DNA of 16,966 nucleotides, from the IMG/VR virus record IMGVR_UViG_2703718855_000004; one strand, given 5' to 3'. Of the stretch, positions 3,022 through 15,548 are shown piece after piece. A model generated the notes under the pieces. It was not told where the DNA came from. It ran no database searches and saw nothing but the letters and a program-made list of their open reading frames with translations. The position numbers were made by a program, and so were the translations under genes. Source of the stretch: a virus. Lineage: Duplodnaviria > Heunggongvirae > Uroviricota > Caudoviricetes. Within the stretch, counting starts at the first letter, position 1. Each line of letters starts with the position of its first letter.

Positions 3022-3603
3022 TTACCCTATAGGTGCTACTGGCCATTCAATATCCTGTGCAGTTGACGTATCAACACGGTTCAGCAATACCCGATACTTT
3101 TTCCAGGCTTCCAGCAACAAGGTTTCTTCCTCCGTTGCGATTTCCAGATCCACAGCATCCTGAAGCGGCGCTATATGCTCACTGGCTACCTGCATCAGGC
3201 TGTTTTTTGTTTCTTCCACCTCCCGGATCCGGAACAGTTTTTCTGCTTCCGTATCCTTCACCCAGGCTGTGCCGTTCCACTTCTGAAACTCCCCTTCCGG
3301 GGATAACCAGGTAACATTTTCCGGTAATGAGCCGAGTTCAGAAATAAATAACGCGTCCCCTGATGCCACGTCATAAACTGTTTTACCCCGATGGTCTTCA
3401 ACAAGATGCCACGATGACTCATCACTGTTGAAAACAGCCACGAAGCCAGCCGGAATATCTGGCGGTGCAATATCGGTACTGTTTGCTGGCAGACCTGTAT
3501 GAGGCGGAATATATGCATCACCTTCACCAATAAATTCATTAGTTCCGGCCAGCAGATTATAAATTTTTATGGTCCGTGGTTGTTCACTCATTCTGAATGC
3601 CAT
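3022..3603 (-). CDS. tfa: Tail fiber assembly protein Tfa (lambda-type)
   Basis: 193-aa [47 protein letters not shown]... is collinear over its full length with lambda Tfa as I recall it. Confidence 0.9.
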
Positions 3604-6633: not shown

Positions 6634-7095
6634 CTATCTGCACTGCTCATTAATATACTTCTGGGTTCCTTCCAGTTGTTTTTGCATAGTGATCAGCCTC
6701 TCTCTGAGGGTGAAATAATCCCGTTCAGCGGTGTCTGCCAGTCGGGGGGAGGCTGCATTATCCACGCCGGAGGCGGTGGTGGCTTCACGCACTGACTGAC
6801 AGACTGCTTTGATGTGCAACCGACGACGACCTGCGGCAACATCATCACGCAGAGCATCATTTTCAGCTTTCGCATCAGCTAACTCCTTCGTGTATTTTGC
6901 ATCGAGCGCAGCAACATCACGCTGACGCATCTGCATGTCAGTAATTGCCGCGTTCGCCAGCTTCAGTTCTCTGGCATTTTTGTCGCGCTGGGCTTTGTAG
7001 GTAATGGCGTTATCACGGTAATGATTAACAGCCCATGACAGGTAGACGATGATGCAGATAACCAGAGCGGAGATAATCGCGGTTACTCTGTTCAT
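6634..7095 (-). CDS. rzpD: i-spanin Rz (inner-membrane spanin subunit)
   Basis: 153-aa product [55 protein letters not shown]... has an N-terminal TM segment and coiled coil. The start was chosen at MNRV, 4 codons inside the ORF-track start. It overlaps the endolysin 3' end. Confidence 0.85.
6693..6875 (-). CDS. rzoD: o-spanin Rz1 lipoprotein, embedded in the +1 frame of Rz
   Basis: 60-aa [63 protein letters not shown], with lipobox VVGC and a proline-rich body, lies entirely inside Rz in another frame. Confidence 0.8.
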
Positions 7096-7589
7096 TGCTG
7101 ACCCCACAAACAGATTTCACGCTCAATCTCACGACGAGTCATGAGACCTTTCCATTGCTTACCGCCAGCATATGTCCAGCGACGTAGCTGATCACATGCG
7201 CCTTTGATATCGCCCTGGTTTATTTTGCGAAGAAGCGTCGATGTTCTGAAATTGCCAGCACCCACGTTGTAAACGAATGAGTAAAGAGCGCCGCGCGTTG
7301 TTTCCGGTATATCGACTTTGATGTACGGGTTAATTTGTCTGGCGACAGTGGCAAGGTCTTTATTCAAGAGTGCTTTGCATTCTGCTTTGGTATACGTTTT
7401 ACCGAGCATGATGTCTTTTCCGGTGTGTCCGTGACATACAGTCCATACGCCAACGATATCTTTGTATGGTACGTAGCTGACACCTTCCAGACCATCGTTA
7501 CCACTTGGGCCAGTAATTAACACTGATGCTATAGCAATTGCTCCGCCACCAATAGCAGCAGCAACGGCTTTTCGTAATGATGGAGGCAT
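7092..7589 (-). CDS. rrrD: Endolysin (lysozyme R) with N-terminal signal-anchor-release-like hydrophobic segment, phage 21-type
   Basis: 165-aa [78 protein letters not shown]... has a Gly/Ala-rich N-terminal hydrophobic stretch and a lysozyme domain. Its start overlaps the holin stop. Confidence 0.9.
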
Positions 7590-7804
7590 TATTCACCTCT
7601 CGCAGCCTTGCGCTTATCTTCTTTAATCTTGAAATAAAGGTTTGTCAGGTACGTCAGCAGGCCAAATACCAGGCTACCCAGCACACCTATTGCTGCCCAC
7701 TGTGAGGGCGTGACTTTATCGAGCAGCTGTAAAAACCAGTAACCGGCACTACCTGCTGAGGTGCCATAGGCGACACCCGTTGTTAACTTATCCATGGATT
7801 TCAT
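7589..7804 (-). CDS. essD: Holin, phage 21 S-type (pinholin class), with dual-start motif M-K-S-M
   Basis: 71-aa product [71 protein letters not shown] with two TM segments. The ORF track extends upstream to 7849; I chose the MKSM start. Confidence 0.85.
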
Positions 7805-7930
7805 AACCCCACCTCGCAGACAAAGCGGGTGTAAATTGAGGGAATACAACGTATCGCAAAAAAGCAGAAACGTAACAGACTCGGAGTCAGTGAATAACTC
7901 AGGTATTGGGTTATCAGCTAATATCGAGAC

Positions 7931-7965
7931 TCAAAAAATGGAAAAACCCGCTCGACGGCGGGTTT
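7931..7965 (-). terminator. Rho-independent terminator upstream of the holin; candidate tR' of the late operon
   Basis: The minus strand reads AAACCCGCCGTCGAGCGGGTTT followed by TTCCATTTTTTG (stem ACCCGC/GCGGGT). It lies about 130 nt upstream of the holin start, where lambdoid phages place tR' between pR'/qut and S. Confidence 0.45.
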
Positions 7966-8390
7966 AAGCTGTGTGACGAAGTAACCACTCTTAACAGCAT
8001 AACCAATTTTTTACGTACGTAAACCACTAAATGATATTTGCGAGAATGCTACCGAGTATTGAAAACACCACTACAAATACATAAGCAAATCTCAACAAAT
8101 AACCAACAAATAATTTCCAGCGTTATTTTAGCTGGTTTAAATTGAATCTTCAAATTATAGAGCACTTATAAATAACAGCCATTAATATAAATTGGCTAAT
8201 AGATTTATTTTTATTCAGCCAAGAGCCATGAATAGGATTCGATAGAAAAAGTTCAGATAAAAATAGAGATCTACTTCACAAATCAAATGAGAAACCAAAA
8301 CTTACATCTTGAAATAATCACATTGATTAGATGAATATTTATCGCGCAGTGACATCATTTTTTAATAATAGTTCAAAAAAAGGGCTCACG

Positions 8391-9473
8391 ATGAAAAAAT
8401 TAACAGTGGCAATTTCTGCTGTAGCTGCATCAGTACTGATGGCGATGTCTGCTCAGGCAGCTGAAATTTATAATAAAGACAGTAACAAGCTGGATCTGTA
8501 CGGGAAAGTTAATGCTAAGCACTACTTCTCCTCTAATGATGCAGATGATGGTGATACTACTTATGCCCGTCTTGGCTTCAAAGGTGAAACCCAAATCAAC
8601 GATCAACTGACTGGTTTCGGTCAGTGGGAATATGAATTCAAAGGCAACCGCGCTGAATCTCAAGGTTCCTCCAAAGATAAAACCCGTCTTGCCTTCGCTG
8701 GCCTGAAATTCGGTGACTACGGCTCCATCGATTATGGCCGTAACTACGGTGTAGCATACGATATTGGTGCATGGACCGACGTTCTGCCAGAATTCGGTGG
8801 CGATACCTGGACCCAAACAGATGTATTCATGACTGGTCGCACCACAGGTGTTGCAACTTATCGTAACAATGACTTCTTTGGTCTGGTTGATGGTCTGAAC
8901 TTTGCTGCTCAGTATCAGGGTAAAAATGACCGCACTGACGTAACTGAAGCTAATGGTGATGGTTTCGGTTTCTCCACTACTTATGAGTATGAAGGATTCG
9001 GTGTAGGTGCAACCTATGCTAAATCTGACCGCACTAATAATCAGGTTATCTACGGTAACAACAGCCTGAATGCATCTGGTCAAAATGCTGAAGTATGGGC
9101 AGCTGGTCTGAAATATGATGCGAACAACATCTATCTGGCTACCACCTATTCTGAAACCCAGAACATGACTGTTTTTGGTAATAACCATATTGCCAACAAA
9201 GCACAAAACTTCGAAGTAGTTGCACAATATCAGTTCGACTTCGGTCTGCGTCCGTCCGTTGCTTACCTGCAATCTAAAGGAAAAGACTTGGGTGCGTGGG
9301 GTGATCAGGACCTGGTTGAATATATTGATGTAGGTGCAACCTATTACTTCAACAAAAATATGTCCACTTTTGTTGATTACAAAATCAACCTGATTGATAA
9401 GAGCGATTTCACGAAAGCATCTGGCGTTGCTACCGATGATATCGTTGCTGTAGGTATGGTTTACCAGTTCTAA
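8391..9473 (+). CDS. nmpC: General porin of the OmpC/OmpF/PhoE family, prophage-encoded (NmpC/Lc-type), apparently intact
   Basis: 360-aa product [23 protein letters not shown]|[23 protein letters not shown]... has a signal peptide, the porin N-terminal motif, and a C-terminal ...GMVYQF with terminal Phe typical of OM beta-barrels. The start was chosen at 8391, not the ORF-track 8331. Confidence 0.9.
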
Positions 9474-9636
9474 TTTGATTACTAAAAGATATGTTGCGGG
9501 AGGCTTTGCCTCCCCAACATATAAGTGGCTCCCTCAAGCCACTTCCTTTAGGAGCACAACCTTGCTTCTAACTATATAAACCTTCTGTTATATATTACCC
9601 TTTATTTTTGGGGGCGTCTCAACGCCCCATTTTTAA
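9474..9636 (+). ncRNA. Structured 3' region downstream of the porin gene; possible IpeX-like small RNA (tentative)
   Basis: Three consecutive hairpins: ATGTTGCGGGAGGC-tttg-GCCTCCCCAACAT (9491..9520), AGTGGCT-ccctca-AGCCACT, and the terminator GGGGCG-tctcaa-CGCCCC plus ATTTTT. A porin-regulating sRNA (IpeX) is reported at the 3' end of nmpC in DLP12. The identity is from memory and the ends are not mapped. Confidence 0.3.
9603..9636. terminator. Bidirectional rho-independent terminator between convergent nmpC and Q genes
   Basis: TTATTTTTG-GGGGCG-tctcaa-CGCCCC-ATTTTT: a GC stem flanked by T-runs on both strands. Confidence 0.65.
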
Positions 9637-9661
9637 TAATTTTTAGTAAACAATTGGCATA

Positions 9662-10045
9662 TTAATTAGAGTTATTAACAACGATATCCATCTCTAACCG
9701 GATATCTAATGCCATTAACATCCCTTCAATTATACCCTCAGCCTTCTGTAACCTTTTCCCGATATAACCATCAGAGCAGCAATGCTTACCTGCCAGTGAC
9801 ATGAATGTCATACCGACTACATAATAATCTACTAATAAATCGTGCAAATCGCTGTTGTTCTTTTTCAGACGGGCCATGCACCCGCAAATGATCATCGCGT
9901 CATCGTCACAACATTGCGGGCGAGATTTTACTTTTGAAGTAATTAATCCCTTAAAACCGGCGGCAATGGACGACCAGGTCACATCTTCATGATTATTAGC
10001 CGCCCACGCTCCCCAACGCTCAAGAACCATCTGAATATCACGCAT
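9662..10045 (-). CDS. quuD: Late-gene antiterminator Q (phage 82/21-type, QuuD-like)
   Basis: Product [71 protein letters not shown]... (127 aa from the second Met; the ORF track starts 5 codons upstream). It has Cys-rich zinc-binding motifs and sits downstream of rusA as in DLP12. Confidence 0.85.
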
Positions 10046-11725: not shown

Positions 11726-12178
11726 TTAGTGACGCGGGTCTGTTATTATGCGAGAAGGGTTTCCGTATAAAACAAGGACCTTACTTCCTTGAGTAAATAA
11801 CGGATCTTTGCCTTGAACAATGGTCATTAAATTCCCATTCTCAGTTTCGACAACATATTCCATGCCTGTTTGTTTTGTTGCTGAAGATTCGATTGCTGCC
11901 CCGGCAATACCACCAATGACTGCACCACCAACGGCACCAACGATATTAGAACGAACTCCCCCACCAAGCGCAGAACCAGCGGTTGCCCCCACGGCAGCCC
12001 CAGCAGTCCCGCCTAACGCGGAAGTCCCACTGATATCAACCCCCCTAGCACTAATAACTGTACCAGCGATAGTTCGATTAACCATGCCCACAGAGCCAAC
12101 AGAATAACTATTTGGCGATATATTTTGTGCGCATCCAACCAACACTAAGAGTGGAGCAATTACGAATAATCGCTTCAT
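11726..12178 (-). CDS. Outer-membrane lipoprotein with glycine-zipper domain, SlyB/Pcp-like
   Basis: 150 aa. Signal peptide with lipobox LVGC, then a long Gly/Ala zipper (GGTAGAAVGATAGSALGGGVRSNIVGAVGGAVIGGIAGAAI), then a C-terminal segment GMEYVVETENGNLMTIVQGKDPLFTQGSKVLVLYGNPSRI that aligns by eye with the E. coli SlyB C-terminus. The start overlaps the upstream gene's stop (ATGA). Confidence 0.8.
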   Translation of the reverse strand: MKRLFVIAPLLVLVGCAQNISPNSYSVGSVGMVNRTIAGTVISARGVDISGTSALGGTAGAAVGATAGSALGGGVRSNIVGAVGGAVIGGIAGAAIESSATKQTGMEYVVETENGNLMTIVQGKDPLFTQGSKVLVLYGNPSRIITDPRH

Positions 12179-12735
12179 TTAGCTACCCTAACAGGAAACA
12201 TTGGACGAGAAAGATCAACACTTTCTAATGCTTGCAAGAACTGCGTTATGTTGTTTTGCACCGCGCGATTAACAGATTCGCGTGCTCGAACAATACCGTA
12301 GAATGCGTAACTGGCTGGAACAGTACCGGTAGACTCAATATCCTGCGTATATATAATATCACCATTCGCACGGTTGATTATTTCATACCTTGCAATTGCT
12401 TTAGTTGTCATTGAAACACCAAAAGCAGGAACGTCAAGAGCCAACACTTTAACATTTAAGCTAACCGTATTTGGTGAACTATCACGAAAAATAGTCATTC
12501 GGTCGAGTGCTTCCTGCAAAGATTCACGCCAAATTGGAGTTATAGCCTCCATACCAGCAGTGATATCCCCTTTCTGCTCATCTGGACGAGCAAGTGATAC
12601 CGTTAATGACTTAATTTCAGCATCTATTTTTTTCTGGCTAACTCCCACGTTAGGTGTTGAAAAATTCAATGGTGGCACACTAGCGCAACCTGTTAAAGAA
12701 CCAATAATCATGGCTAATAATATTATCTTCTTCAT
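12175..12735 (-). CDS. Uncharacterized lipoprotein, first gene of a two-gene lipoprotein operon
   Basis: 186 aa. MKKIILLAMIIGSLTGC|ASVPP... has lipobox LTGC and a Shine-Dalgarno-like AAGG 8 nt upstream. I recognise no family. It is translationally coupled to the SlyB-like gene. Confidence 0.75.
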   Translation of the reverse strand: MKKIILLAMIIGSLTGCASVPPLNFSTPNVGVSQKKIDAEIKSLTVSLARPDEQKGDITAGMEAITPIWRESLQEALDRMTIFRDSSPNTVSLNVKVLALDVPAFGVSMTTKAIARYEIINRANGDIIYTQDIESTGTVPASYAFYGIVRARESVNRAVQNNITQFLQALESVDLSRPMFPVRVAK

Positions 12736-13789: not shown

Positions 13790-14466
13790 CACCGGACATT
13801 ATCCTGCAGCGTACCGGGATCGACGTGAGAGCTGTCGAACAGGGGGATGATGCATGGCACAAATTACGGCTCGGCGTCATCACCGCTTCAGAAGTTCACA
13901 ACGTGATAGCCAAGCCCCGCTCAGGAAAGAAGTGGCCTGACATGAAAATGTCCTACTTCCACACCCTGCTGGCTGAGGTTTGCACCGGTGTGGCTCCGGA
14001 AGTTAATGCTAAGGCGCTGGCATGGGGAAAACAGTACGAGAACGACGCCAGAACCCTGTTTGAATTCACTTCCGGCGTGAATGTTACTGAATCCCCGATC
14101 ATCTATCGCGACGAAAGTATGCGCACCGCCTGCTCTCCCGATGGTTTATGCAGTGACGGCAATGGCCTTGAGCTGAAATGCCCGTTTACCTCCCGGGATT
14201 TCATGAAGTTCCGGCTCGGTGGTTTCGAGGCCATAAAGTCGGCTTACATGGCCCAGGTGCAGTACAGCATGTGGGTGACACGAAAAGATGCCTGGTACTT
14301 TGCCAACTATGACCCGCGTATGAAGCGTGAAGGACTGCATTATGTCGTGGTTGAGCGGGATGAAAAGTACATGGCGAGTTTTGACGAGATGGTGCCGGTG
14401 TTCATCGAAAAAATGGACGAGGCACTGGCTGAAATTGGTTTTGTATTTGGGGAGCAATGGCGATGA
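13786..14466 (+). CDS. exo: Lambda exonuclease (Red-alpha), full length
   Basis: 226-aa [68 protein letters not shown]...GEQWR is collinear with lambda Exo over its full length, with only a few substitutions from the recalled sequence. The start overlaps the bet stop (ATGA). Confidence 0.95.
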
Positions 14467-15548
14467 CGCATCCTCACGATAATATCCGGGTAGGCGCAAT
14501 CACTTTCGTCTACTCCGTTAACCTTTATATAAGAAACAATGGATATTACTGCTACAGGGACCCAAGGACGGGTAAAGAGTTTGGATTAGGCCGAGACAGG
14601 CGAATCGCAATCACTGAAGCTATACAGGCCAACATTGAGTTATTTTCAGGACACAAACACAAGCCTCTGACAGCGAGAATCAACAGTGATAATTCCGTTA
14701 CGTTACATTCATGGCTTGATCGCTACGAAAAAATCCTGGCCAGCAGAGGAATCAAGCAGAAGACACTCATAAATTACATGAGCAAAATTAAAGCAATAAG
14801 GAGGGGTCTGCCTGATGCTCCACTTGAAGACATCACCACAAAAGAAATTGCGGCAATGCTCAATGGATACATAGACGAGGGAAAGGCGGCATCAGCCAAG
14901 TTAATCAGATCAACACTGAGCGATGCATTCCGAGAGGCTATGGCTGAAGGCCATATAACAACAAACCCGGTCGCAGCCACTCGCGCTGCAAAATCAGAGG
15001 TAAGGAGATCAAGACTTACGGCTGACGAATACCTGAAAATTTATCAAGCAGCAGAATCATCACCATGTTGGCTTAGACTTGCAATGGAACTGGCTGTTGT
15101 TACCGGGCAGCGAGTTGGTGATTTATGCGAAATGAAGTGGTCTGATATCGTAGATGGATATCTTTATGTCGAGCAAAGCAAAACAGGCGTAAAAATTGCC
15201 ATCCCAACAACATTGCATGTTGATGCTCTCGGGATATCAATGAAGGAAACACTTGATAAATGCAAAAAGATTCTTGGCGGAGAAACCATAATTGCATCTA
15301 CTCGTCGTGAACCGCTTTCATCCGGCACAGTATCAAGGTATTTTATGCGCGCACGAAAAGCATCAGGTCTCTCCTTCGAAGGGGATCCGCCAACCTTTCA
15401 CGAGTTGCGCAGTTTGTCTGCAAGACTCTATGAGAAGCAGATAAGCGATAAATTTGCTCAACATCTTCTCGGGCATAAGTCGGACACCATGGCATCACAG
15501 TATCGTGATGACAGAGGCAGGGAGTGGGACAAAATTGAAATCAAATAA
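14457..15548 (+). CDS. int: Lambda-type integrase (tyrosine recombinase) with replaced N-terminus: 22 codons matching the start of lambda orf60a are fused in frame to Int from about residue 16
   Basis: 363-aa [25 protein letters not shown]|[27 protein letters not shown]... After the junction (nt ~14520) it is near-identical to lambda Int and retains the catalytic residues (R in VTGQRVGD, K in SKTGVK, H-x-x-R in [10 protein letters not shown] and Y in [11 protein letters not shown]). The start overlaps the exo stop. Confidence 0.88.

Follow-up and report, generated by a model that had tools for sequence, protein, structure and literature searches.

An intact NmpC/Lc-type porin gene and its IpeX-homologous 3′ tail in a defective lambdoid prophage of Escherichia coli

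The NmpC/Lc porin of lambdoid prophages and the small RNA IpeX that accompanies it form a locus that is already known and common, and its outline is textbook-level for E. coli prophage biology. IpeX is a 167-nt RNA that is made from the porin promoter within the porin transcript and then processed, and it fills the non-coding interval that separates the stop codon of nmpC/lc from the Rho-independent terminator (PMC12197685). It represses ompC and ompF (PMC5069750, PMC8065619), and multicopy and PA-2 experiments credit the repression of OmpC and OmpF to it (PMC12197685, PMC5069750, PMC8065619); we take both the existence of the RNA and its repression of the two porins from this literature. With regard to mechanism, IpeX is said in a review not to base-pair with ompC or ompF (PMC3617542), is said to act not through complementarity alone (PMC12197685), and has been called Hfq-independent (PMC8313858). 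MicF and MicC are antisense sRNAs encoded on the chromosome, and they obstruct the ribosome-binding sites of ompF and ompC. IpeX has no sequence similarity to MicF, and it arises by cleavage from an mRNA 3′-end whereas MicF and MicC are free-standing genes. The abstract of the original IpeX paper reportedly separates the two targets by their Hfq dependence, with repression of ompF being Hfq-dependent and repression of ompC independent.

To these systems we compare a locus from a virus record of the Caudoviricetes (IMGVR_UViG_2703718855_000004), the whole stretch of which, 16,966 nt, is referred to here as the window. The host element is a defective lambdoid prophage of E. coli, without structural genes, xis and part of the replication and recombination genes, and it lies at the lambda attachment region (ybhC / ybhB-bioA), a different site from that of DLP12. 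Its porin gene occupies the Q-holin interval in the same orientation as NmpC of DLP12 and Lc (protein 2) of PA-2. This agrees with the preliminary description, which had placed the porin antisense between these two genes: both flanking genes are on the − strand and the porin gene is on the + strand. The Q gene is 99.7% identical to K-12 quuD, and it converges with the porin gene across a spacing of 188 nt. The order Q-porin-holin is also that of DLP12 of K-12 and of 36 phage records, PA-2 lc among them; 434B has the same layout. We consider the region to be, very probably, a two-part lysogenic-conversion unit of lambdoid E. coli phages, carried here by a defective prophage. The features of the locus and its surroundings are:

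6634..7107, − strand: Rz gene, flanking the locus
7092..7589, − strand: lysozyme gene, flanking the locus
7589..7804 (or to 7849), − strand: holin gene (essD / S), first of the lysis cassette (Pfam Phage_holin_2_1, E=3.5e-35; RefSeq)
7944..8153, − strand: late promoter (8153-8125) and terminator (7965-7944), both candidates, ahead of the holin gene (consensus scan)
7969..7989, no strand given: CRP-binding site 1, 21 nt identical to misc_binding 1067-1087 of J02580 (PA-2 annotation)
8263..8283, no strand given: CRP-binding site 2, 21 nt identical to misc_binding 1363-1383 of J02580 (PA-2 annotation)
8309..8390, + strand: putative proximal promoter and 5′ leader for the porin gene (near-invariance across alleles)
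8391..9473, + strand: NmpC/Lc-type general porin gene (ORF of 360 aa plus stop; Pfam and PDB matches)
8391..8459, + strand: signal peptide of 23 aa, ending in SAQA before AEIY (read from the sequence)
8931..9470, + strand: divergent C-terminal half of the porin with predicted loops L4-L8 (start approximate, codon 181; nt and aa differences from PA-2)
9474..9640, + strand: porin 3′ UTR, homologue of the IpeX sRNA; its 167 nt span the interval from the stop codon to a little beyond the U-tract of the terminator
9489..9522, + strand: hairpin 1, 15 bp with one bulge (fold; covariation)
9523..9544, + strand: hairpin 2 (fold)
9548..9571, + strand: hairpin 3 (fold)
9573..9594, + strand: hairpin 4, weak, all-AU, probably open (predicted fold)
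9579..9604, + strand: conserved, weakly structured stretch, candidate seed (complementarity to ompC; conservation)
9611..9634, + strand: intrinsic terminator, a 7-bp GC stem (from 9611-9628) with a 4-nt loop, then A and TTTTT (scan, fold, sequence)
9662..10045, − strand: quuD, the late antiterminator gene Q, running towards the porin gene (Pfam Phage_antitermQ, E=4e-53; RefSeq)

The porin gene is complete, as had been claimed for it as a member of the OmpC family. The ORF runs from ATG to TAA without interruption, and the Pfam Porin_1 match of its 360-aa product spans profile positions 1-337 of 337 (E=3.1e-153; 510.6 bits against a cut-off of 23.7). Solved structures of OmpK37, OmpC and PhoE match it with E values of about 1e-137 to 1e-130 (OmpK37, E=2e-137), and solved chains of OmpC, OmpK36, PhoE and OmpF align along the whole mature protein; this end-to-end alignment suggests that the prophage porin forms a 16-stranded trimeric beta-barrel. 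It belongs to the same fold family (PF00267) as Salmonella OmpD and E. coli OmpC, OmpF and PhoE, but is prophage-borne and separate from the chromosomal ompC. Three features can be read in the translation: the signal peptide, which matches without change the 23-aa sig_peptide of J02580 (the PA-2 record), a PEFGG motif (constriction loop) and a C-terminal VYQF. In strain VG48B2, which is 100% identical, RefSeq annotates the porin at the same coordinates. The name given to it varies, from ‘porin OmpC’ in RefSeq to OmpD or LC in other sources, and the 90%-identity cluster to which the protein belongs has 2741 members named LC, OmpD or OmpC. The labels ‘OmpC’ and ‘OmpD’ on the prophage porin are family-level names from annotation pipelines.

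Comparison with Lc of PA-2 and NmpC of K-12 gives an amino acid identity of 90-91% (94% with the ev017 class), but this identity is unevenly distributed. The signal peptide and the first 180 residues are near-identical, with 2-3 differences, whereas the predicted surface loops differ by a 3-residue and a 2-residue deletion plus clustered substitutions, and the protein is 360 aa long rather than 365. Measured against PA-2, the DNA of codons 1-60 is 100% identical, that of codons 181-240 71% and that of codons 301-367 83%, and the amino acid differences cluster at alignment columns 183-187, 219-232, 268-272, 307-316 and 340-352. The C-terminal half of the porin thus reads as a divergent cassette (down to 71% nucleotide identity) within a module that is otherwise 94-100% conserved. 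Upstream of the gene, 8309..8390 hardly varies among the four allele groups, and the most divergent lineage is no exception. Unlike nmpC of K-12 (IS5) and of E. coli B (IS1), the window copy is uninterrupted. The IS5 disruption that had been claimed for K-12 nmpC is indeed found at this same locus, after codon 346 and with a CTAA target duplication; the window porin has no CTAA where IS5 sits. Intactness is usual at such loci, and it is K-12 and B that depart from it.

Directly 3′ of the porin stop codon lies the tail, which the preliminary description had found consistent with IpeX. Alignment bears this out: the tail is 97.6% identical to the sequence 3′ of K-12 nmpC and PA-2 lc, with 3 mismatches and 1 gap in 166 nt, in the same place relative to the porin, with the same intrinsic-terminator end and the same 167 nt. 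(Read from the porin stop codon to the U-tract, the length is 161-167 nt.) The comparison with K-12 nmpC/ipeX that had been suggested at the outset pairs this tail identity of 97.6% with the porin identity given above. Between the window tail and K-12 IpeX there are three substitutions and a single-base deletion; one difference is in the loop of hairpin 1, one is in hairpin 3 and two are in the single-stranded 5′-end. In K-12, IS5 separates ipeX from the porin promoter, but the window tail, like that of PA-2, directly follows an intact porin gene and should therefore be co-transcribed with it.

The tail (9474..9640) is strongly structured, with a predicted fold of -61.8 kcal/mol compared to -31.5 ± 3.7 for shuffled sequences (z=-8.25; none of 200 shuffles was as good). 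Three hairpins and a bidirectional terminator had been described here; the hairpins and the terminator are real, but there are four hairpins, the last of them weak, and the terminator belongs to the + strand only. The terminator scan reports 9611..9634 for the + strand alone, and the + strand 5′ flank of the stem is TTTATTTTT, with no A-tract. Because a − strand transcript would have CAAAAAUAAA past the stem, without a U-tract, the terminator is not bidirectional.

Natural variation bears on these hairpins to different degrees. In the lineage with a 367-aa porin, four pairs of hairpin 1 change on both sides and stay paired (UA>CG, GC>AU twice and CG>UA), although these compensatory changes are effectively one evolutionary comparison because all come from one lineage. 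The six consensus pairs of hairpin 2 are invariant and therefore neutral as to structure; the ev017 class alters the two positions that make the inner pairs of the hairpin’s 8-bp stem in the window’s fold. Hairpin 3 has one pair changed on both sides (UA>AU), and a G at position 9552 of the window forms a G-U pair where K-12 has A-U. Hairpin 4 is weak and its structure is not conserved, with two pairs broken by natural variants and a mean unpaired probability of ~0.4; it is probably open.

In Rfam, no family reached the gathering threshold over the whole window, and 9300-9800 searched at E up to 10 gave chance-level matches only (E>2, e.g. traJ_5 and sau-19); the absence of a match is uninformative because no IpeX-named family appeared in either search. 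The K-12 record NC_000913.3 lists micF and has no ipeX feature in DLP12. The prophage sRNA svsR (PMC12803456) was considered as a synonym of IpeX and is unrelated. ‘ORF1’ of PA-2, antisense over the porin end and the tail, was discarded as a gene, with no − strand ORF of at least 50 aa found at 9300-9660.

The longest invariant run of the tail is 9583..9604, as determined from 130 loci that were anchored at the porin stop codon and are thus a sample independent of the candidate seed. This run is weakly structured, and it overlaps a stretch of complementarity to the ompC leader. Specifically, 9579-9593 (AACCUUCUGUUAUAU) is complementary to ompC -21..-7 in 15 contiguous pairs, 14 of them Watson-Crick and one G-U, and within it 9584-9591 (UCUGUUAU) lies opposite ompC -19..-12. 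By the longest-contiguous-run statistic, the 15-pair run was matched by 0.55% of 2000 dinucleotide shuffles and by none of 145 background start regions, and the pairing has a net energy of -11.4 kcal/mol after opening costs. All 15 pairs are kept in the most divergent lineage, where a C-G becomes U-G, and among the 5371 E. coli genomes that hold the ompC leader, 5359 have it at an identity of 99% or more. The Shine-Dalgarno region of ompF is complementary to 9593-9602 over 9-10 bp, a match that alone is not significant in the dinucleotide-shuffle run test; this predicted site overlaps the MicF target AGGGUAAUA. Against the porin’s own leader, the longest complementary run of the tail is 8, nothing comparable to ompC. 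Tests based on energy were not significant, whether by full-length RNAduplex of IpeX with the ompC and ompF leaders against shuffles or by a sliding 22-nt comparison, which found the ompC site; these tests lacked power because the MicF-ompF positive control failed too (z=-1.1 in the full-length version).

These observations suggest how the two parts of the unit may work together. Part one is the intact NmpC/Lc general-diffusion porin, which would be expressed from its own CRP-site-bearing promoter in the direction opposite to the late genes. Part two is the structured 3′ UTR of the porin mRNA, that is, the IpeX RNA, which would be made whenever the porin is transcribed, processed out as in the literature, and would lower synthesis of host OmpC and OmpF. 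The predicted net effect is that the host’s major porins are swapped for the phage porin, changing permeability and the surface seen by phages and antibodies; porin identity affects antibiotic entry and phage adsorption. Phage 434 uses OmpC as its receptor. Support for receptor removal was sought in the 434-type tail-tip protein J and did not emerge, as among 35 porin-carrying records at least 13 have this type, compared to 74 of 250 J-bearing records overall, with no clear enrichment.

Within this scheme, we put it at close to an even chance that ompC is repressed by direct pairing of 9579-9593 with its Shine-Dalgarno region, such that ribosome binding would be blocked; 9593-9602 would act likewise on the Shine-Dalgarno region of ompF. 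The broader proposal, that IpeX pairs as an antisense RNA with both mRNAs, with AACCUUCUGUUAUAU covering the ompC Shine-Dalgarno and UAUUACCCU binding the ompF Shine-Dalgarno region, runs against the reviews, and we advance it more tentatively. If pairing is right, IpeX would act as MicF and MicC do, by masking the Shine-Dalgarno region in a porin mRNA, and the phage would carry both a porin and an antisense RNA dedicated to the host porins, an RNA that the leader of the phage porin escapes. A long ompC duplex could explain Hfq-independent action, and a short ompF duplex could explain Hfq dependence. Repression of ompC by IpeX has been described as independent of base pairing since 2006, and the complementarity seen here makes pairing directly testable. 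Relative to the known locus, the new details are the divergent cassette, the compensatory changes in hairpin 1, the invariant and weakly structured stretch, and the ompC complementarity.

Several other explanations deserve consideration. That the porin gene is intact but quiescent, silenced or without an active promoter, with no porin and no tail RNA in ordinary growth and no phenotype, strikes us as unlikely. A title cited by PMC3333887 terms nmpC a quiescent porin gene in E. coli B, but the IS5 and IS1 insertions, both absent here, account for the quiescence of the gene in K-12 and B. A consensus scan of the + strand at 7850-8390 found no sigma-70-like promoter upstream of the porin; moreover, the prophage is defective, missing the genes listed above, and the upstream region is very AT-rich, and the gene may therefore be silenced. 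However, the 586 nt upstream of the porin share 95.8% identity with PA-2, whose two annotated CRP sites recur here unchanged, and PA-2 lysogens make Lc. In addition, of the 131 loci with the tail core, 112 carry an intact porin gene whose end lies 108-111 nt upstream of it, and such strong conservation of the coding frame argues for use. Quiescence is also at odds with the detection of ipeX RNA by RT-PCR in clinical isolates, where the measured levels were variable (PMC7177473). A different possibility is that the tail is conserved on account of the − strand, as a late promoter and Q-binding site just downstream of Q; we regard this as very improbable. The lambda late promoter lies directly after Q, and 9600-9661 is well conserved, but the consensus scan found no promoter-like site on the − strand from 9661 to 9470, phages with an 87%-identical Q share nothing with the window beyond 9686, and the compensatory changes fit an RNA stem of the + strand. 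Furthermore, the − strand has a promoter-like site and a strong terminator a short way ahead of the holin gene, at 7944..8153; these would be context, outside the porin unit. Their placement is consistent with the regulatory region of the DLP12 lysis operon, cloned as a -121..+650 fragment that the operon start fits (PMC7918800).

The remaining explanations concern how the tail acts. It is improbable that it is solely a cis element, protecting the 3′-end and shielding the convergent Q gene by termination, with no role in trans. Stacked hairpins ahead of a terminator are a common mRNA-stabilising layout and the porin and Q genes do converge at a distance of 188 nt; yet the published multicopy and PA-2 experiments tie OmpC/OmpF repression to IpeX (PMC12197685, PMC5069750, PMC8065619), and the most conserved stretch is a weakly structured one, not a stem, which a purely structural role does not predict. 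A substantial chance, if one below even, must be given to the idea that the tail RNA represses the host porins without base pairing, for example by titrating a protein on which porin mRNAs depend for translation or stability, and that the ompC complementarity is coincidental. Reviews deny base pairing (PMC3617542), Hfq-independent action has been reported (PMC8313858), the three stable hairpins could be protein-binding sites, and the energy-based pairing tests were not significant. Coincidence must nevertheless account for a 15-pair run that few shuffles and no background start regions reached, and for its place in the tail’s longest invariant run, itself weakly structured. Nor was a conserved protein-binding motif identified; the AGGAG of hairpin 3 in the window is AGAAG in K-12.

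The two-part unit is widespread within E. coli. A species-level scan with a 30-nt IpeX pattern, which would miss more divergent homologues, returned E. coli plus one 442-bp contig labelled Streptomyces. The tail goes with the porin: besides the 112 of 131 loci given above, relatives that carry another cargo gene are without the tail. One natural variant does have the porin but with a different terminator where IpeX would be. The exact porin protein occurs on at least 1000 contigs, and among complete E. coli genomes 2469 of 5426, about half, contain at least 80% of the queried stretch.

The porin gene reads without interruption from ATG to TAA, and Pfam Porin_1 covers its product over the whole profile (E=3.1e-153), bearing out the preliminary description of an intact porin that sits on the opposite strand, with Q on one side and the holin gene on the other. 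Solved chains of OmpK37, OmpC, OmpK36, PhoE and OmpF align with the product end to end (E=2e-137 to 4e-108), the 23-residue signal peptide is identical to that annotated for Lc of phage PA-2, and both the PEFGG motif and a terminal YQF are present.

Features of the porin locus (window coordinates)
6634..7107, - strand: Rz
7092..7589, - strand: lysozyme
7589..7804, - strand: holin
7965-7944, - strand: strong terminator-like hairpin in the porin-holin spacer (scan)
8153-8125, - strand: promoter-like site in the porin-holin spacer (consensus scan)
8391..9473, + strand: porin ORF, 360 aa (sequence)
9489-9522, 9523-9544 and 9548-9571: hairpins 1, 2 and 3, GC-containing (fold prediction)
9573-9594: all-AU hairpin (fold prediction)
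9611-9628, + strand: terminator stem, followed by A and TTTTT (fold and terminator scan)
9662..10045, - strand: Q (quuD)

The K-12 equivalent, nmpC, is indeed disrupted by IS5, as had been stated; the insertion follows codon 346 and comes with a duplicated CTAA, and in E. coli B the match to the porin locus is split by IS1. The CTAA target of K-12 nmpC is CGAA in the window allele (CACGAAAGC versus CACTAAAGC; window 9420-9440 versus comparison sequence L001 4425-4440, 5625-5640), so K-12's particular IS5 target is absent there. The laboratory phage 434B (L005, OL657227.1, 2288-4584) shares the IS5-interrupted porin of K-12 DLP12, within a block annotated ‘approximate region of 434 nonhomology’, which fits an acquisition through recombination with the cryptic prophage of K-12. 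An intact copy is ordinary, not special. At least 80% of 8000..9700 occurs in one place in 2469 of 5426 complete E. coli genomes, and the Q-porin-holin module is found in 36 phage records, PA-2 lc and 434B among them. In sampled IMG/VR contigs, an uninterrupted porin (360, 365 or 367 aa) ends 108-111 nt upstream of the tail core at 112 of 131 places, most of the remainder being cut by contig ends; the exact window protein is present on at least 1000 contigs, where the source names it OmpD, LC or OmpC.

IpeX has been described as a 167-nt RNA of DLP12 that is transcribed within the porin mRNA from the promoter of the phage porin, is then processed, and controls OmpC (PMC12197685); other papers describe it as a repressor of ompC and ompF (PMC5069750) and place it in PA-2 as well (PMC8065619). 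Because the tail matches no family in an Rfam search and ipeX is not annotated in the curated K-12 record, the test of identity is a comparison with the copies that served to define IpeX. Relative to the K-12 and PA-2 copies, the tail has three substitutions and one single-base gap in 166 nt, and 161-167 nt separate the stop codon from the U-tract's end. This near-identity, from comparison with the K-12 nmpC/ipeX region and PA-2, confirms the earlier identification as IpeX. The porin and IpeX finding is thus real and correctly interpreted; it is also already known and very common. Among species-representative genomes, a strict 30-nt tail pattern occurs in E. coli only, apart from one 442-bp contig labelled Streptomyces alkaliterrae (L013, NZ_VJYK02000722.1) with an exact match, most probably a contaminant of that assembly from E. 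coli or a phage.

The tail is linked to the porin on sequence comparison. Phages with an 87%-identical Q have a lipocalin (Blc) gene where the window has the porin, likewise antisense after Q (for example phage ev087, L011 2302-2826, versus window 9474-9686), and their homology with the window ends at 9686, within the last 8 codons of Q, with nothing shared past it. Because homology ends inside Q and the cargo differs, this slot seems to be a site at which cargo genes are exchanged. In comparison sequence L121 (- strand), the IpeX tail is swapped, 14 nt past the porin stop, for another GC-rich hairpin and TTTTT; this is a natural variant with the porin and without IpeX.

The tail (9474..9640) has a predicted fold of -61.8 kcal/mol, compared with -31.5 +/- 3.7 for shuffles (z=-8.25). 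The three hairpins previously placed before the terminator are present as GC-containing helices, but a fourth, weak AU hairpin accompanies them. The terminator itself is not bidirectional, as had been proposed: the scan places it on the + strand alone, and the stem's upstream flank is T-rich, so a transcript of the - strand would lack a U-run. From an alignment of 13 natural variants RNAalifold recovers the same helices; in it, four pairs in hairpin 1 and one in hairpin 3 are altered on both sides yet remain paired; all of these changes come from the 367-aa lineage and therefore count as one comparison. The covariation in hairpin 1 is an addition to the known picture. In hairpin 2 and the terminator, consensus pairs are unvarying or change only to G-U, which is uninformative on structure, and the AU hairpin is broken in natural variants.

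Unlike MicF and MicC, IpeX has been described in reviews as not base-pairing with ompC or ompF (PMC3617542), and elsewhere as not relying solely on complementarity (PMC12197685); independence of Hfq and a single likely direct target have been stated for it too (PMC8313858). We compared the 167-nt tail with the K-12 ompC and ompF leaders. Tail positions 106-120 (window 9579-9593, AACCUUCUGUUAUAU) could pair with ompC -21..-7 (AUAUAACAGAGGGUU) through 14 Watson-Crick pairs and one G-U, covering the Shine-Dalgarno sequence. A run of 15 contiguous pairs was reached by 0.55% of 2000 dinucleotide-preserving shuffles and by 0 of 145 crude start regions drawn from the window and phage loci (maximum 14); the longest run was 11 in the ompA leader and 8 in the porin's own leader. 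The adjoining UAUUACCCU (9593-9601) matches the ompF Shine-Dalgarno region AGGGUAAUA, a nine-pair match that is not significant alone. Across 130 porin loci, gathered by an anchor at the porin stop codon and so without regard to the tail, the longest stretch of tail free of variation is 9583-9604, which is weakly structured and holds most of the ompC and ompF matches. The most divergent lineage has one C to U change, turning a C-G pair of the ompC match into U-G, and identity in the ompC leader is 99% or higher in 5359 of the 5371 genomes that hold it. The predicted net energy of the tail-ompC duplex, with the opening cost of both RNAs deducted, is -11.4 kcal/mol, compared with -18.5 for the known MicF-ompF duplex treated in the same way; shuffle tests based on energy were without power, as their positive control failed as well. 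This complementarity to the ompC ribosome-binding site was overlooked before and adds to the known picture. That IpeX acts by pairing there is a tentative proposal, to which we would give slightly less than an even chance.

The mosaic allele structure of the porin is likewise an addition.

Nucleotide identity of the window to K-12, PA-2 and six phages, by segment
Q: 97-100%
3′ tail: 94-98%
porin coding sequence: 88-90%
porin-holin spacer: 93-96%
holin: 96-100%

Against PA-2, nucleotide identity is 100% over porin codons 1-60, 71% over 181-240 and 83% over 301-367, and is back up to 97.6% in the tail. The amino-acid differences are grouped in five short blocks in the C-terminal half, which by analogy to porins of solved structure would be outer loops L4-L8. 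The sample holds four allele groups, at 98-100%, ~94%, ~90% (Lc/NmpC, 365 aa) and 87.5% (367 aa). Such a mosaic is consistent with recombination, inside conserved flanks, having shuffled old alleles of the exposed porin half.

The 80 nt upstream of the porin start codon are almost invariant across all allele groups, and the window has both CRP sites of the annotated PA-2 record unchanged (7969-7989, 8263-8283). A consensus scan found no sigma-70 promoter on the + strand for the porin, as could be expected of an activator-dependent promoter. The - strand promoter-like site and terminator-like hairpin in the spacer are candidates, from their sequence, for a late promoter and its terminator; the hairpin lies ~95-140 nt ahead of the holin start and nearly touches the first CRP site. 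The DLP12 lysis-operon regulatory region was cloned as -121..+650 (PMC7918800), which fits a late start within the spacer. Given such a start, the porin would lie between Q and Q's target promoter, where late transcripts would not cross it.

The window matches the chromosome of E. coli strain VG48B2 at 100% identity and covers a defective, DLP12-like lambdoid prophage (comparison sequence L002 1-19701) flanked by ybhB/bioA and ybhC. We take this interval to be the lambda attachment region, which differs from the DLP12 site in K-12. The - strand order is nin-region genes (ybcN, ninE, ybcO, rusA, ylcG), Q, a gap, holin, lysozyme, Rz and, further on, nohD, the same as in DLP12. The prophage keeps nin-Q-porin-lysis-bor-nohD, a partial ren, a partial recT, IS remnants and an AraC-family regulator; its large terminase gene is truncated and adjoins a tail-fibre assembly gene. 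At the position of ybcM/ybcL in K-12 DLP12, 11726-12735 (-) holds two function-unassigned ORFs (150 and 186 aa); Pfam gave just a weak, sub-threshold glycine-zipper match for one of them and nothing for the other. A 363-aa ORF at 14457-15548 (+), labelled ‘DUF1317 family protein’ in RefSeq, encodes an integrase of the lambda type, with a Phage_integrase domain (E=3e-40) and an Arm-DNA-binding domain (E=2.5e-24). The N-terminal 21 residues derive from a DUF1317 gene, and no xis gene is annotated between the two parts; the genes look to have been joined by deletion. A full-length Rfam match to IS009 at 3062-3260 (-) (218 bits, E=9e-54) lies wholly within the tail-fibre assembly gene 3022-3603 (-), and the Rfam ‘gene’ is coding sequence there.
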